From a phage, in assembly GCA_022520065.1 (NCBI GenBank), contig GCA_022520065.1_3942.1: a stretch of 64,000 nucleotides of DNA. One strand, written 5' to 3'. Every line of letters starts with the position of its first letter. The stretch's first letter is position 1. This document shows positions 58,759 to 63,901 of the stretch, in pieces. The position numbers and the translations under genes were made by a program. The notes beneath the pieces are model-generated. The model was not told the origin of the DNA. It was given only the letters and a program-made list of their open reading frames with translations, and made no database searches.

Positions 58759-58775
58759 AGTTTTCTCCTTAGAAA

Positions 58776-58799
58776 ATAAAAAAGGCTCCCGAAGGAGCC
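58776..58799 (-). terminator. intrinsic terminator after endolysin gene
   Basis: On - strand GGCTCC-ttcg-GGAGCC followed by TTTTTT. Confidence 0.6.
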
Positions 58800-58809
58800 T
58801 ATGAAGATA

Positions 58810-59274
58810 TTACTTTGGGTATACACTGTCAAGATAAATGTCAGCTTCCATTCTACGTCTGTTTTTCAGTCCGTTTGAAGTGACCTTCTTACCTTTGACT
58901 GTAACCTTGTTCCACCACTGCATAGCTTCTGCACAACCTACCTTATTACCAGCATTGTGGCGCTTGATAAATGTGGAATCCTGCATAGCCGTGATACCAA
59001 TGTTGTATGTTTCACTTACAAGTGCGTCAAACTCATTCTGAGAAGTTGGAACCTTGATGGCTTTGTTCACTGCTGCAACGAACCTTTCAACATCTGCGAG
59101 AAGATACTGTTCAGCTTGTTCAGCGGTAATCTTCATACCCATCTTAACAGGTTTACCAGCAATACTGATAGTCCCATACCCAATTGTGGGGATTCCAGCA
59201 GAATCTTCGTAAGCCTCCAGCTTCAGACCTTCAAAGAACTTAATAGCCTCTAAACCTTTTCTTGAGAGTTGCAT
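58810..59274 (-). CDS. endolysin, GH24 phage lysozyme
   Basis: N-terminal FEGLKLEAYEDSAGIPTIGYG lysozyme signature. Confidence 0.8.
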   Translation of the reverse strand: MQLSRKGLEAIKFFEGLKLEAYEDSAGIPTIGYGTISIAGKPVKMGMKITAEQAEQYLLADVERFVAAVNKAIKVPTSQNEFDALVSETYNIGITAMQDSTFIKRHNAGNKVGCAEAMQWWNKVTVKGKKVTSNGLKNRRRMEADIYLDSVYPK

Positions 59275-60407
59275 TATGCCTCCCCTGCTGGGTTAACTGT
59301 AACTGTTGCCGCATTAGATGTTACAGAGCCACCTGCGCCAGTAACTACACAGGTGTAGCTTCCTGAATCAGCAGTGGTTGCACCTTCTTTGGTGTAAGTT
59401 GCAGTAGTTGCGTCTGGGATGTTTTCCTCACCCTTCTTCCACTGATATCCTGTTGCACCTGTTGCCACAACATTCAGCGTTAAGGTCTCACCTTCAGTGA
59501 TTTCTTGATTGGTTGGCTGTTGAGTGATTACAGGAAGTGCATTCACAGTTACTACAGCAGCATTAGATTCCACTGCACCACCAGCACCTGTTACAACGCA
59601 AGTGTATGAACCTGCATCTGCTGGCAGAGCACCAGACTTGCTATAGGTGGCATCTGTAGCCGAAGGAATGTCAGAGCCATCTTTCTTCCACTGATAACCT
59701 GTTGCACCTGTTGCAGTCACTTCCAAGTTGATATTTCCACCCTCATTGATGGTCTGGCTAGAAGGTTGTTGTGTAATCACAGGCAGTGCGTTAACAGTAA
59801 CTGTTGCCGCATCTGAGGTAACGCTTGTTCCAGCCTCTCCAGATACAACACAAGTGTATGAACCAGCATCAGAAGGTACTACAGACTGTTTTGTGTAGGT
59901 TGCAGATGTGGCGCTAGTGATATCCTCACCATCTTTTTTCCATTGATATCCAGTGGCATTAGTTGCAATAACGCTTAGGTTAAGTGTACCACCTTCATTT
60001 ACTGTTTGATTGGTTGGTTGCTGAGTGATTGATGGTGGCTTGATAGCGTCCTTCAACTTAGCATTCAACATTGAGAATGGTTTAACTCTTGCCAGCCATT
60101 CACAATAAACTGTATCAACGTCTTTACCATTGATAATTGCATATTGTAAGTCCATGAAGAAGTCAGAAGTTCTCATTTGAGCACCAACGCTGTAAAGCAA
60201 CTCATCACTAAATGGAACTTTGTAGTCTGGTTTGTAGTCAAACTTCTCAACTTCTGCAATATCAGCTTCAGGCCAATACGAACTATAGGTGAGTGGTAAA
60301 ATAGCCTCTTGATATGTTCTAAAGTCATATCTCTTACCAGCCTTTACATTTGCAATGAAGCCCTTCACAAACTCTTTGAAGTCTGGGTAAGTCTTTGCTT
60401 TAATCAT
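59274..60407 (-). CDS. protein with three tandem Ig-like domains
   Basis: Three ~90-aa repeats (QQPxxQxxNEGxxxxLxVxATGATGYQWKK...GSYTCVV); N-terminal domain paralogous to 60404..60775. Confidence 0.5.
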   Translation of the reverse strand: MIKAKTYPDFKEFVKGFIANVKAGKRYDFRTYQEAILPLTYSSYWPEADIAEVEKFDYKPDYKVPFSDELLYSVGAQMRTSDFFMDLQYAIINGKDVDTVYCEWLARVKPFSMLNAKLKDAIKPPSITQQPTNQTVNEGGTLNLSVIATNATGYQWKKDGEDITSATSATYTKQSVVPSDAGSYTCVVSGEAGTSVTSDAATVTVNALPVITQQPSSQTINEGGNINLEVTATGATGYQWKKDGSDIPSATDATYSKSGALPADAGSYTCVVTGAGGAVESNAAVVTVNALPVITQQPTNQEITEGETLTLNVVATGATGYQWKKGEENIPDATTATYTKEGATTADSGSYTCVVTGAGGSVTSNAATVTVNPAGEA

Positions 60408-60775
60408 TTCTTTTTATCCTCTAAATGTGCGTTTAGTCTAAAATAACCTTTGTGATGCGGAGATACATCACCAACAACGATACCTTTAACCTTATAACCT
60501 TTACCAATTACATACTGGATATCCATAAGGAATCTTCCAAGACCAACAATATGGAACATTGGATATAATAGATTCTCAGAGTCTGGAATATTGATTTCGG
60601 GTTTGTAGGTGCGTTGTTCGATTGTTGGTGTAATATCTTCTTCAGGCCATTTACTAAGTCTCCATGTCAAAGGTGTTGGGATAACATCATTAAGGTTGTA
60701 CCTTTCACCATTTTGCACGGAATTGATATAGGATTGTAGGAAGCAATAAAAGTCTTTTGCACTCTTAGCTTTCAT
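60404..60775 (-). CDS. hypothetical protein (paralog of N-terminal domain of Ig-like protein)
   Basis: Shared N-terminal pattern and FLMDIQYVI block. Confidence 0.45.
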   Translation of the reverse strand: MKAKSAKDFYCFLQSYINSVQNGERYNLNDVIPTPLTWRLSKWPEEDITPTIEQRTYKPEINIPDSENLLYPMFHIVGLGRFLMDIQYVIGKGYKVKGIVVGDVSPHHKGYFRLNAHLEDKKK

Positions 60776-60822
60776 TAAATATCCTTATAAATAGTTAAAG
60801 GGGCATCAGCCCCTATTCACAC

Positions 60823-61413
60823 TTAAGCTTTGGTCTTAAGTAGGTTCTTAAGTTTTTTAAGATTCATACTCTCATCAAACTTAAAACCAAATCCATTGAC
60901 ATAATCAATGAACTCGGATTTCTTACTGAGTGACAATGCGTAACTCATATCAAAGTTCTTACTTGTTTCTGCGTCTGGACTAGAGTTCACATCAAATGAA
61001 ATTTCTGTAGGCTCTTGCTTACTTTTTCTCATATTATCAACCAACAAACATGTATAGTTTGCTGGATAGAAATTTACACTACCATCAACGTAGCTGTACT
61101 TATTATTATGGATAAGGTTGGAAAATACCTTAAGAAATGTTTCTGAGTCGTGGCAAACAAGTTTGAATTGGCTGCTCTCTCCAAGCGCAACTAATGAGTA
61201 CGGACTTTCACTATCAAAGTCATAATTTGGATTCGATGGTGTCACTGTTACACGCATCAAGTTATTAGCAATGGTCTTCTGTTTAAAAGAATTTTGAACA
61301 TAGTGAAGACCTCTATCACACTGGTTGACTAGCTCTTTAAGTAGGTCATTTGCATATGGCGAATTAATTGATACAGAGCCATCACTATTGTAATTAAAAC
61401 TTACTGTTAACAT
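60823..61413 (-). CDS. hypothetical protein
   Basis: 196-aa ORF. Confidence 0.5.
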   Translation of the reverse strand: MLTVSFNYNSDGSVSINSPYANDLLKELVNQCDRGLHYVQNSFKQKTIANNLMRVTVTPSNPNYDFDSESPYSLVALGESSQFKLVCHDSETFLKVFSNLIHNNKYSYVDGSVNFYPANYTCLLVDNMRKSKQEPTEISFDVNSSPDAETSKNFDMSYALSLSKKSEFIDYVNGFGFKFDESMNLKKLKNLLKTKA

Positions 61414-62032: not shown

Positions 62033-62404
62033 ATGAAAAACAGAACAAACAAAGGCCAGTTTAAAAAAGGCCAGTCTGGAAACCCATCTGGAAGACCAAA
62101 AGGCTCTCGTAACAAAAGTTCACTCGTAAAAGCTCAACTGACCATTGATAATTCTGCTGAGTTCGCTGCAAAGCTGTTTGAGGCGATTGTTACAAGGGAC
62201 GCGGCTAAGCTTGCAGAGTTCGGGTTAAACACAGATGACGTAACCATCAAGAGTATGATTGAGGTCGGTAAAACTATCTTTACTCACTCAGCAGGTGAGA
62301 TGAAAGCACTTGCAGCAGACACTAAGAAGACTCCTGAGAATGGTGGTCAACAACAGACAGATAACAAACCAACGTTCTCTGCTGTAGCGACTCTTAAAAA
62401 ATAA
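62033..62404 (+). CDS. hypothetical protein with GNPSGRPKG motif
   Basis: 123-aa ORF; basic Gly/Pro N-terminus. Confidence 0.45.
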   Translation: MKNRTNKGQFKKGQSGNPSGRPKGSRNKSSLVKAQLTIDNSAEFAAKLFEAIVTRDAAKLAEFGLNTDDVTIKSMIEVGKTIFTHSAGEMKALAADTKKTPENGGQQQTDNKPTFSAVATLKK

Positions 62405-62485: not shown

Positions 62486-63901
62486 ATGAGCGAATTATTT
62501 AAACATGCGCACCTTCATGCAGGTCGAACTGAAAATGGTGCTGTAAACCATACTTCATCAATGTCTGCTCTTGTGGACTTTTACAAAGCTGCTGGTTCTA
62601 GCCGTAGCAATGTAGAAATCTTACCAGACTTGTTCTACAAAGCTTTGCATGAGGATGTTGATGTTGCAGTTCGTATTTTACTGCATATGCGAGATGTACG
62701 AGAAGGTATGGGTGAGCGTAAAGCTTTCCGAACTGTTTTACTTCAAGCGATTGAAGATAAAGTTCTAGAGTCTACACAGGTTCTTCGCATTATGGATAAG
62801 ATTGCAGAGCTTGGTCGCTTTGATGATTTCAAAATCTTCGTGGGTACTTGTTTCGAGACAGATGCCTTCAAGCATTTAGAAGCAGCATTACTAGACCCTG
62901 CAACAGCAGGTTTGGCAGCTAAGTGGTTACCACGAGTCAAACCACGTCATAAGCAGTTTGTAAAACGTTTCTGCAAGTTTGCCAACTTGAGTGAGAAAGA
63001 GTACCGCACACTGTTGTCTGCACTATCTGATACAGTTGAGCAAAAAATCTCTGCTAATGAGTTTGGTAAGATTGACTACAGTAAGATTCCTTCACTTGCT
63101 GCTGCACGTTACCAAAAACTGTTTAACCGTAAAGATGGAGAGCGTTACAAAGCTTACATCGAGTCCTTATCAAAAGGTGAGACTAAGATTAACGCTGGTG
63201 CTGTTTACCCATACGATGTGATTAAATCTGTCAAGTATGGTAATGCAGATGTTGCTAATGAGCAGTGGAAAGCACTACCAAACTGGATGGCAGAAGGTGA
63301 AAACATCTTGTGTATGTCTGATGTATCAAGTTCAATGTCTTGGGTGAATTTTGGCTCCATTACTGCTCTGGATATTGGTGTATCACTTGCCTTGTATGTA
63401 GCAGAACGCAATACAGGTTGCTTTAAGAATGAGTTAATGGTTTATTCAACAAACCCTCACTTCATCGAACTGAGTGGTGATTTACGAAACCGTCATCGTC
63501 AGGTGATGCGACACGTTGAATATGGCTCAACTAACTTACAAGCAGCTTTTGACCGTATTCTTGAGACAGGTAAAAGAAACAACTTGACTCAGAAAGATAT
63601 GCCAAGTAAGCTTATCATCTTCTCCGATATGGAGTTCAATCAGGTTGATGGAGCTAACGGTCGTACAAACTTTGAAGCAATTCAGAGTAAGTACAAAAAA
63701 GCTGGATATGAGATGCCACAACTGGTATTCTGGTACTTAGCAAACCGTAATGGCACTTGCGAAGTATCTGTTAAGGATAACGGTGTAGCAATGGTATCTG
63801 GTTTCTCTCCAGCCACTTTAAAAGCTTTGCTTGGTGGTGAGAAGTTTGACCCAATCAGCGTAATGCTCAAAGCAGTAATGATTGACCGTTATATCTGGTA
63901 A
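62486..63901 (+). CDS. vWA-domain protein, possibly TROVE/Ro60-like
   Basis: MIDAS-like DVSSSMS in C-terminal half; helical N-terminal half; family assignment tentative. Confidence 0.4.
   Translation: MSELFKHAHLHAGRTENGAVNHTSSMSALVDFYKAAGSSRSNVEILPDLFYKALHEDVDVAVRILLHMRDVREGMGERKAFRTVLLQAIEDKVLESTQVLRIMDKIAELGRFDDFKIFVGTCFETDAFKHLEAALLDPATAGLAAKWLPRVKPRHKQFVKRFCKFANLSEKEYRTLLSALSDTVEQKISANEFGKIDYSKIPSLAAARYQKLFNRKDGERYKAYIESLSKGETKINAGAVYPYDVIKSVKYGNADVANEQWKALPNWMAEGENILCMSDVSSSMSWVNFGSITALDIGVSLALYVAERNTGCFKNELMVYSTNPHFIELSGDLRNRHRQVMRHVEYGSTNLQAAFDRILETGKRNNLTQKDMPSKLIIFSDMEFNQVDGANGRTNFEAIQSKYKKAGYEMPQLVFWYLANRNGTCEVSVKDNGVAMVSGFSPATLKALLGGEKFDPISVMLKAVMIDRYIW

Follow-up and report, generated by a model that had tools for sequence, protein, structure and literature searches.

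Organization of the locus

We examined positions 58810 to 60775 of a 64,000-nucleotide (nt) stretch of phage DNA, contig GCA_022520065.1_3942.1 of GenBank assembly GCA_022520065.1 (hereafter the window). Three genes lie there, all on the minus strand; in the direction of transcription they are a short gene, a long gene and the gene for an endolysin (Table 1). The short and long genes overlap by the 4 nt ATGA, the long gene and the endolysin gene share 1 nt, and the three-gene unit is bracketed by two hairpin terminators (60813-60789 and 58800-58773). The region is 96-97.6% identical at the nucleotide level to many Felixounavirus genomes, S.Kent 1-2-1, LF82P2, wV8 and VpaE1 among them, and on this similarity we assigned the window to a Felix O1-type myophage of the genus Felixounavirus. 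The short, long and endolysin genes correspond to ORF37, ORF36 and ORF35 of Felix O1, to gp42, gp41 and p13 of wV8, and to bas63_0125, bas63_0124 and bas63_0123 of Bas63; the short gene is also ORF40c of VpaE1, and the long gene is gp20 of Sf14.

An earlier note, made from the letters of this stretch, had described the first two genes as a paralogous pair downstream of the endolysin, with a common N-terminal domain of approximately 120 amino acids and, on the longer protein, three tandem immunoglobulin (Ig)-like domains. The coordinates in the note were exact, and the common domain was borne out by BLASTP, which aligned residues 1-123 of both proteins over 128 columns at 35% identity (E=2e-18), a value that places paralogy far beyond chance. 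Because all three genes are on the minus strand, however, the pair is upstream of the endolysin and not downstream of it.

We consider it likely that the long gene encodes the capsid decoration protein Hex-Dec and that the short gene is a selected but dispensable stand-alone paralog of its capsid-binding domain, the product of which is not retained in virions. The identity of Hex-Dec and its place beside the endolysin are already known; the new element is the anchor-only paralog.

The long gene encodes the decoration protein Hex-Dec

By its sequence, the long gene is the already-characterised, Hoc-like decoration protein of hexamer centres known as Hex-Dec or gp20. A phmmer search matched its product to chain 9ncf_S of Bas63 (E=4.4e-291; approximately 98% identical), with near-identical residues over amino acids 1-306, and to chains 9c2d_S and 9c3a_S of Sf14 (E=1.1e-171); the protein also matches phrog_3995 (E=5.6e-209). 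The PDB entries name these chains "immunoglobulin-like domain protein" (9ncf_S) and "tail protein" (9c2d_S and 9c3a_S).

Bas63 and Sf14 have T=9 capsids with two decoration proteins, one of which is Hex-Dec/gp20. A capsid-binding domain (CapBD) of approximately 118 amino acids at its N terminus sits as a monomer at the centre of hexamers next to pentamers, and not at that of the hexamers on three-fold axes, so that 60 of the 80 hexamers (the 60 peripentonal ones) are occupied and the remaining hexamers are without density; the Ig domains are flexible and do not appear in the maps (PMC12609058; PMC11821841). Sf14 gp20 is held in place partly by salt bridges that link its Arg79 and Arg107 to the major capsid protein at Asp221 (PMC11821841). 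Our alignments show both arginines in the protein of the window as well (AQMR79TSD and LAR107VKP, in Sf14 numbering). Its CapBD is near-identical to that of Bas63 and 88% identical to that of a Mooglevirus orthologue. The ratio of nonsynonymous to synonymous substitution rates (dN/dS, Nei-Gojobori) is 0.04 for the CapBD, 0.12-0.13 for the first Ig domain and 0.07-0.08 for the endolysin, and the isoelectric point (pI) is 5.5 for the CapBD and 4.2 for the Ig part.

The earlier note's expectation that an Ig-bearing phage protein would decorate the virion surface agrees with what is known of the orthologues. They have been seen on capsids by cryo-electron microscopy (PMC12609058; PMC11821841), Felix O1 gp36 was recovered from purified virions with 14 peptides and 44% coverage (PMC3185647), and Sf14 gp20 was found by virion mass spectrometry (PMC11821841). 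The note had also remarked that the genes sit with the endolysin and not with the structural module. This description is accurate in that the gene stands beside the endolysin and away from the main morphogenesis block, a distance already remarked upon for the "tail protein" gene of Felix O1 gp36 (PMC3185647). As a functional anomaly it did not hold. An arrangement of a 185-206-amino-acid open reading frame (ORF), a CapBD protein and an endolysin is kept in every related lineage found, and endolysin-adjacent CapBD genes occur in Felixounavirus, Mooglevirus, Kolesnikvirus, a metagenomic lineage and a still more distant one. Because this adjacency is conserved across Ounavirinae, the position is neither new nor anomalous.

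The endolysin adjacency and the shared transcription unit are also the only observations in favour of a role for the Ig-bearing protein in lysis or at the cell envelope instead of on the virion. We give such a role almost no credence, because capsid structures and virion proteomes both contain orthologues with 88-98% identity in the anchor, and because the amino acid sequences contain no hydrophobic stretch long enough for a signal peptide or a transmembrane segment. Timing argues in the same direction: in Felix O1, reverse-transcription PCR placed the maximum of both ORF36 and ORF37 at 60 min, in a class shared with tail and head genes, whereas the flanking ORF35 (the lysin) and ORF38 peak at 25 min.

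We suggest that the Hex-Dec anchor plugs the centres of peripentonal hexamers after capsid maturation, and that the three acidic I-set Ig domains would then form a flexible, outward-pointing fibre. By analogy with what has been proposed for T4 Hoc, this fibre would probably provide weak adhesion to surfaces or glycans, or control virion aggregation.

The Ig repeats and their variable number

The three Ig domains were recovered by Pfam, with Ig_3 (E=6.6e-33), I-set (E=1.8e-26) and Ig_2 (E=4.6e-25) each matching three stretches. Structure prediction, which the earlier note had put forward as a check, returned an Ig fold: the AlphaFold2 model contains three all-beta domains with a predicted local distance difference test score (pLDDT) of 95-97, and the best PDB fold matches of the string in Foldseek are the I-set Ig strings of Robo, titin and LRIG1. 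The repeats are 67-70% identical to each other as protein and 64-68% as DNA, and a repeat search gave a DNA period of 249-252 nt. Tandem Repeats Finder found nothing in the Ig region because the copies are too diverged.

Among 26 related loci, the length of Hex-Dec changes in steps of 83-84 amino acids, with proteins of 210/211, 294/298, 377 and 461 amino acids corresponding to one to four Ig units. The window protein is without the third unit (Ig3) of Bas63. A conserved linker, VTVNALPVITQQP, is found at the repeat boundaries and is a plausible site for in-frame unequal recombination. In Salmonella phage ST11 (L032 2869-3750) and in Z31 (L030 2498-3070) Hex-Dec is split into several short ORFs, which could reflect either real pseudogenisation or sequencing frameshifts in the repetitive Ig region.

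Most genomes mislabel Hex-Dec as a "tail protein", and relatives carry one to four Ig domains (PMC12609058). Correcting this label would be useful for annotation and, given that anything from one to four Ig units is tolerated in the string, for phage display and engineering.

The short gene is a real gene related to the capsid-binding domain

The short protein matches phrog_4463 (E=4e-79), which is of unknown function in PHROGs. In phmmer searches its PDB matches were 9ncf_S (E=1.9e-12) and 9c2d_S (E=6.5e-12), with no other chain, and it shares approximately 36-39% of its sequence with the CapBDs of the orthologues. An AlphaFold2 model of moderate confidence (pLDDT 62) had the same two Hex-Dec chains as its sole significant Foldseek matches (probability 1.0, TM-score 0.53-0.58). 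The protein has no Pfam match and no Ig domain, and in 28 loci it is never fused to another domain. Databases label it "hypothetical protein" or, by transfer, "tail protein". The two structural papers do not mention the short gene, and the word "paralog" is absent from both (PMC12609058; PMC11821841); two further papers (PMC12892995; PMC8300805) contain nothing on either the short gene or Hex-Dec. A pseudo-two-fold symmetry of the CapBD has been reported from the Bas63 structure (PMC12609058). At the sequence level we found no such internal duplication, as half-versus-half alignments scored no better than shuffles.

Several observations point to selection on the short gene. Its dN/dS is 0.12 at a median dS of 0.7 (Nei-Gojobori, 28 distinct alleles), its product is 122-124 amino acids long in the 28 loci, and of 253 Felixounavirus and Mooglevirus records searched with tblastn, 233 hold a full-length copy. 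The short gene and Hex-Dec overlap, or adjoin without a gap, in at least three divergent lineages of Ounavirinae: the 24 Felixounavirus and Mooglevirus loci that were checked have ATGA at the junction, two Mooglevirus loci have an overlap of 8 nt, and the third lineage (L036) has one of 1 nt. Going by these sequence comparisons, we regard the short gene as a real gene under selection, and the ATGA overlap is consistent with translational coupling to Hex-Dec.

The junction also invites a more elaborate reading, in which a programmed -1 frameshift at T_AAA_AAG, just before the short-gene stop, fuses the short protein to Hex-Dec to give two tandem CapBDs. The Felixounavirus junction, GAT AAA AAG AAA TGA (window 60404-60420), would permit this, as Hex-Dec is read in the -1 frame and the path after the slip is free of stop codons. 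The motif is absent in Mooglevirus, however, where the junction reads AAT AAA TGA or AAG AAA TGA; the frame relation is +1 in two loci (L025 and L026); the third lineage has a different junction; and Felix O1 gp36 is listed at its unfused predicted mass of 31.6 kDa. Because neither the slippery motif nor the frame relation is conserved, we rejected the fusion as extremely improbable, and the junction is probably incidental.

A natural deletion lineage

An internal deletion of approximately 223 nt in the short gene, together with loss of the start codon, is common to Z31 (China, Shigella), vB_CECAV_041 (Spain, Salmonella), fBSPA4 (India, Salmonella) and REP7 (USA, E. coli), a lineage that spans four countries and three host genera. 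By tblastn, approximately 19 of the 253 records fall into this deletion class. Hex-Dec is intact, at 210-294 amino acids, in three of the four phages, and in Z31 it is annotated as two fragments. That a lineage so widespread has lost the short gene and kept Hex-Dec indicates that the gene, helpful as it may be, is not essential, and the intact Hex-Dec in its absence indicates that Hex-Dec does not need the short protein as an obligatory chaperone.

The deletion lineage bears equally on the notion that the short gene is a duplicated fragment of little or no function, kept mainly since its 3' end holds the translation-initiation region of Hex-Dec. This would fit the viability and spread of the lineage, the fact that it keeps exactly the 3' stretch of approximately 75 nt upstream of the Hex-Dec ATG, and the fact that no function is known for the gene. 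We nevertheless consider it quite improbable, because purifying selection acts over the whole ORF at the dN/dS and dS given above, because lineages with only 45% identity in protein still keep the reading frame and the length, because the gene has its own ribosome-binding site, and because many invariant residues are specific to the short clade. We therefore continue to treat the short gene as selected and dispensable.

Age and direction of the duplication

A profile of both paralogs, searched against 1.84 billion representative proteins, retrieved 12 clusters only, all from the same kind of phage locus, and hence yielded no informative distant homologue of known function. The family is a very small one. 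Besides Felixounavirus and Mooglevirus, a third lineage on an 87-kb contig has the same arrangement, with a 122-amino-acid short copy and a 298-amino-acid Hex-Dec (P0097 and P0098); identity in its short copy is down to 45%. Comparison of the most distant lineages gives 45% identity for the short copies, versus 59% for the CapBD of Hex-Dec. The clusters also include Kolesnikvirus-type proteins that have one Ig-like domain.

Lineages with a single CapBD gene, namely Kolesnikvirus and more distant relatives, mostly have it fused to an Ig-like domain. The Kolesnikvirus order is a 206-amino-acid ORF, a CapBD protein with an Ig-like domain, and the endolysin, with no short gene. In one distant case (P0103, L038 6001-6462), upstream of the endolysin, the CapBD is joined to a low-complexity tail rich in Lys (KVKKSETKQKVEDDSKPKGESKKTSKKPSKSDS) and not to Ig domains, which indicates that the outward-facing module of the anchor is exchangeable.

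When a neighbour-joining tree was rooted with outgroups, the short copies grouped together (94% bootstrap), and Hex-Dec joined Kolesnikvirus to their exclusion (87% bootstrap); a tree of the three CapBD clades without an outgroup did not separate their order. The placement of the short clade implies that the duplication is old. The earlier note had suggested a paralog that acquired a surface-binding extension. Given that single CapBD genes are mostly Ig-fused and that the short clade lies outside, this now appears to be the less likely direction: the Ig-less state is more likely to be derived, or separately maintained, than ancestral to Hex-Dec, with long-branch attraction a possible influence on the tree.

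The short protein in relation to finished virions

The virion proteome of Felix O1 lists 17 proteins at a 25% coverage cut-off, including proteins of 9.7, 11.7, 13.3 and 13.7 kDa, and Gp37 is not among them (PMC3185647). That of VpaE1 comprises 22 proteins, equal to the Felix O1 set minus gp23 plus gp54, gp58 and gp68, and ORF40c, which we confirmed to be the short gene, is absent from it as judged from the main text. No chain in any solved structure matches the short protein except the Hex-Dec chains, though both Bas63 and Sf14 encode the short gene. On the negative evidence of four independent sources, all of them concerning relatives of the window phage, finished virions do not retain the short protein. 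A view of the short copy as a second decoration protein thus ran counter to both the virion proteomes and the solved virion structures.

The residues of the two clades suggest how their binding may differ. In the alignments, the Arg79 column holds an invariant Gly in the short clade and Arg in Hex-Dec and Kolesnikvirus, while the Arg107 column holds His, Gln or Asp in the short clade, depending on the alignment. The alignment has approximately 125 columns. In 32 of these the two clades share one and the same invariant residue, and many of the 32 lie in the loop-rich PLT..S.WPE.DI…Y.P….P.S..LLY. Another 29 are fixed within each clade and differ between the short clade and Hex-Dec; these are modestly enriched in the N-terminal helix and in residues 75-86 and 104-117, and are otherwise spread along the domain. 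Residues 75-86 and 104-117 are the regions that hold the capsid-contacting arginines in Hex-Dec, and in their place the short protein carries the strongly conserved PMFHIVGLG and DVSPxHKGYFR. The short protein is also basic (pI 8.9), versus the mildly acidic CapBD. These differences suggest that the short protein has the same fold and uses the same face, with a different specificity.

It could be argued that the short protein is instead a part of the virion that has been missed, such as a plug without Ig domains on the 20 three-fold-axis hexamers. Icosahedral averaging would smear a monomer bound at the three-fold hexamers that Hex-Dec leaves empty, and the CapBD fold, the late co-expression, the overlap with the start of Hex-Dec and the occupancy of just 60 of 80 hexamers would all suit such a plug, as would the short protein's own conserved version of the capsid-facing motifs. 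We regard it as very improbable nonetheless. The protein went undetected in Felix O1 and VpaE1 virions, though low-copy proteins and proteins of 10-14 kDa were detected; both cryo-electron microscopy papers report no density on the other hexamers, and no PDB chain corresponds to it; Arg79 is lost; and the gene is deleted in a successful lineage.

Several points weigh against the interpretation that we favour, of a Hex-Dec on the virion beside a CapBD paralog that is not retained there. Both structural papers liken Hex-Dec to T4 Hoc but call its role not established (PMC12609058; PMC11821841). The virion location of the window Hex-Dec is transferred from orthologues that are 88-98% identical in the CapBD, and the adhesion or aggregation role of its fibre comes from the analogy to T4 Hoc only. 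The evidence for virion absence of the short protein is negative in kind, and it is weakened for Gp37 by the coverage cut-off and for ORF40c by its reading from the main text. Alignment at the Arg107 column is ambiguous, and close to it all clades keep a basic residue, Lys109; the model of the short protein is of moderate confidence; and binding of the short protein to the capsid or to Hex-Dec is putative. Finally, a thriving lineage without the short gene means that any assembly role would be minor under the conditions of those phages.

A possible role for the short protein

We tentatively propose, as a possibility that we would not call probable, that the short protein is a non-virion accessory factor in capsid assembly or decoration, acting inside the infected cell. 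It may transiently bind capsomers in a state or at a site left unused by Hex-Dec, for example in the procapsid or on three-fold hexamers, or it may modulate the loading of Hex-Dec. A more specific version is distinctly unlikely, though worth stating: the short protein would recognise the skewed hexamers of the procapsid or the 20 three-fold hexamers, set the place and time of Hex-Dec loading, and then leave the particle. If this were true, the phage would carry its own regulator of the way in which T=9 capsids come to be decorated on 60 of 80 hexamers, and the short protein would represent a kind of assembly accessory not recognised before.

The same data could describe a protein that shares only its ancestry with Hex-Dec and has been re-purposed, as a binder of a host factor or as a decoy or antagonist of a defence system that senses the CapBD fold. 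Faster evolution than the CapBD (dN/dS 0.12 versus 0.04; 45% versus 59% identity), the reversed charge (pI 8.9 versus 5.5), the absence from virions, and a dispensability in some lineages that is typical of accessory host-interaction genes are all in keeping with this. A PADLOC search for a link to defence or anti-defence gave no match, nor was there a match to Pfam or to an NCBI-style family name; any host target is hypothetical; and the strict physical and temporal coupling to Hex-Dec is easier to understand as a shared capsid-related role. On balance we hold re-purposing to be unlikely.

Should the short protein act on capsids, as we propose, it would offer a handle on the choice among quasi-equivalent hexamers and on the timing with which decoration proteins are loaded. 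Natural knock-out phages for comparison already exist in REP7, fBSPA4, vB_CECAV_041 and Z31.

Coordinates and neighbouring genes

The features of the locus are collected in Table 1. The hairpin at 60789..60813 is annotated as a rho-independent terminator in wV8 and is kept in related phages, although a simple terminator scan did not list it.

Table 1. Coordinates of the short gene, Hex-Dec, the endolysin gene and associated elements (window positions unless a locus is named)
Feature	Position	Strand	Basis
Hex-Dec, 377 amino acids, Hoc-like hexamer-centre capsid decoration protein	59274..60407	-	phmmer, phrog_3995, orthologue structures
Capsid-binding domain (CapBD), Hex-Dec amino acids 1-124	60036..60407	-	near-identical over amino acids 1-122 to the CapBD modelled in 9ncf_S
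Ig-like domain 1, amino acids 125-208	59784..60035	-	Pfam, repeat alignment, AlphaFold2
Ig-like domain 2, amino acids 209-291	59535..59783	-	Pfam, repeat alignment, AlphaFold2
Ig-like domain 3, amino acids 292-373, equivalent to Ig4 of the four-domain Bas63 protein	59289..59534	-	Pfam, alignment to 9ncf_S, AlphaFold2
Short gene, 123 amino acids, stand-alone paralog of the Hex-Dec capsid-binding domain	60404..60775	-	ORF, BLASTP, phrog_4463, phmmer, Foldseek
ATGA overlap of short-gene stop and Hex-Dec start	60404..60407	-	sequence
Shine-Dalgarno-like AAGGA, 6 nt upstream of the short-gene ATG (60775-60773)	60782..60786	-	read from sequence
Hairpin terminator GGGGC-TGAT-GCCCC then TTTAACTATTT, between the 196-amino-acid ORF and the short gene	60789..60813	-	sequence
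GH24 endolysin, 154 amino acids; ATG overlaps the Hex-Dec stop by 1 nt	58810..59274	-	Pfam Phage_lysozyme E=8.7e-41, phrog_7 E=9e-57
Intrinsic terminator AGGCTCC-TTCG-GGAGCCT plus T-run, closing the three-gene unit	58773..58800	-	terminator scan; annotated at the same place in wV8
Short-gene deletion loci, equivalent to window 60480-60704	L030 2290-2510, L031 2297-2510, L041 993-1213, L042 993-1213		

Upstream of the short gene lies a 196-amino-acid ORF (60823-61413, minus strand; phrog_4034) that is kept in position, at 185-206 amino acids, in every related lineage. It has no Pfam match and no PDB match. In T4, hoc and inh are adjacent genes. We considered the 196-amino-acid ORF as a T4 Inh-like protein and rejected this, as hmmscan, with E up to 10, did not recover the faint match to Phage_Inh_N that had been flagged on a distant homologue.

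Divergent from the late unit, on the plus strand, are genes for a DUF5681 protein (62033-62404) and a 471-amino-acid DUF2828/DUF7788 protein (62486-63901). The latter has the RefSeq label "RNA-binding protein" and stands directly before the tRNA cluster in wV8 and Felix O1, and even in L038, the most distant of the related lineages, the pair still adjoins the CapBD-endolysin unit. From the coordinates of wV8 and Felix O1, the major capsid gene is probably outside the window.

The Felixounavirus locus is also found, at approximately 99% protein identity, in a record named as a Staphylococcus phage (SA1, VpaE1 supplement), and two proteins attributed to E. coli "genomes" (P0008 and P0051) are on contigs of approximately 88 kb that resemble whole Felixounavirus genomes. 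These records are probably mis-assigned or contaminating phage sequence.

Comparison with known decoration systems

The closest known counterparts are Bas63 Hex-Dec and Sf14 gp20, which the long ORF resembles in its CapBD, in its C-terminal string of I-set Ig domains and in its gene position upstream of the endolysin; Bas63 has four Ig domains versus three in the window protein. The short ORF shares the CapBD fold with them but is without Ig domains and without Arg79, is basic, and has not been seen in virions.

The Kolesnikvirus "tail protein" (e.g. vB_EamM-M7 gp008) and P0101-P0103 have a homologous CapBD (27-38% identity) in the same place, between a 185-206-amino-acid ORF and the endolysin. 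They differ in being single-copy, with no short paralog, and in having a single Ig-like domain whose sequence is of another type or, for P0103, the Lys-rich tail.

The Ig domain of T5 pb10 (PDB 5lxk and 8zvi) matches amino acids 215-290 of the long ORF (E=9e-12). T5 pb10 has a single Ig domain, and it is only this domain that matched; at E up to 10 there was no match to amino acids 1-120 of the long ORF or to the short ORF. To our knowledge neither T5 pb10 nor, in T4, Hoc has an adjacent or separate anchor-only paralog.

T4 Hoc is like Hex-Dec in being a monomer at hexamer centres with a projecting string of Ig domains, acidic, dispensable and variable in Ig number (PMC12609058; PMC11821841). 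The capsid-binding domain is C-terminal in Hoc versus N-terminal in Hex-Dec, and the CapBD of Hex-Dec is larger than the Hoc anchor, topologically distinct from it and pseudo-two-fold symmetric (PMC12609058). Both structural papers remark on the reversed domain order and on the differing fold of the anchor (PMC12609058; PMC11821841). We found no sequence similarity between the two anchors, and the matches to PHROG "Hoc-like head decoration" profiles are confined to the Ig region, at amino acids 121-371 (phrog_2973 at amino acids 121-290). Hex-Dec thus resembles Hoc in the way it works but stands outside the Hoc family, and it is accompanied at this locus by a stand-alone copy of its own anchor.

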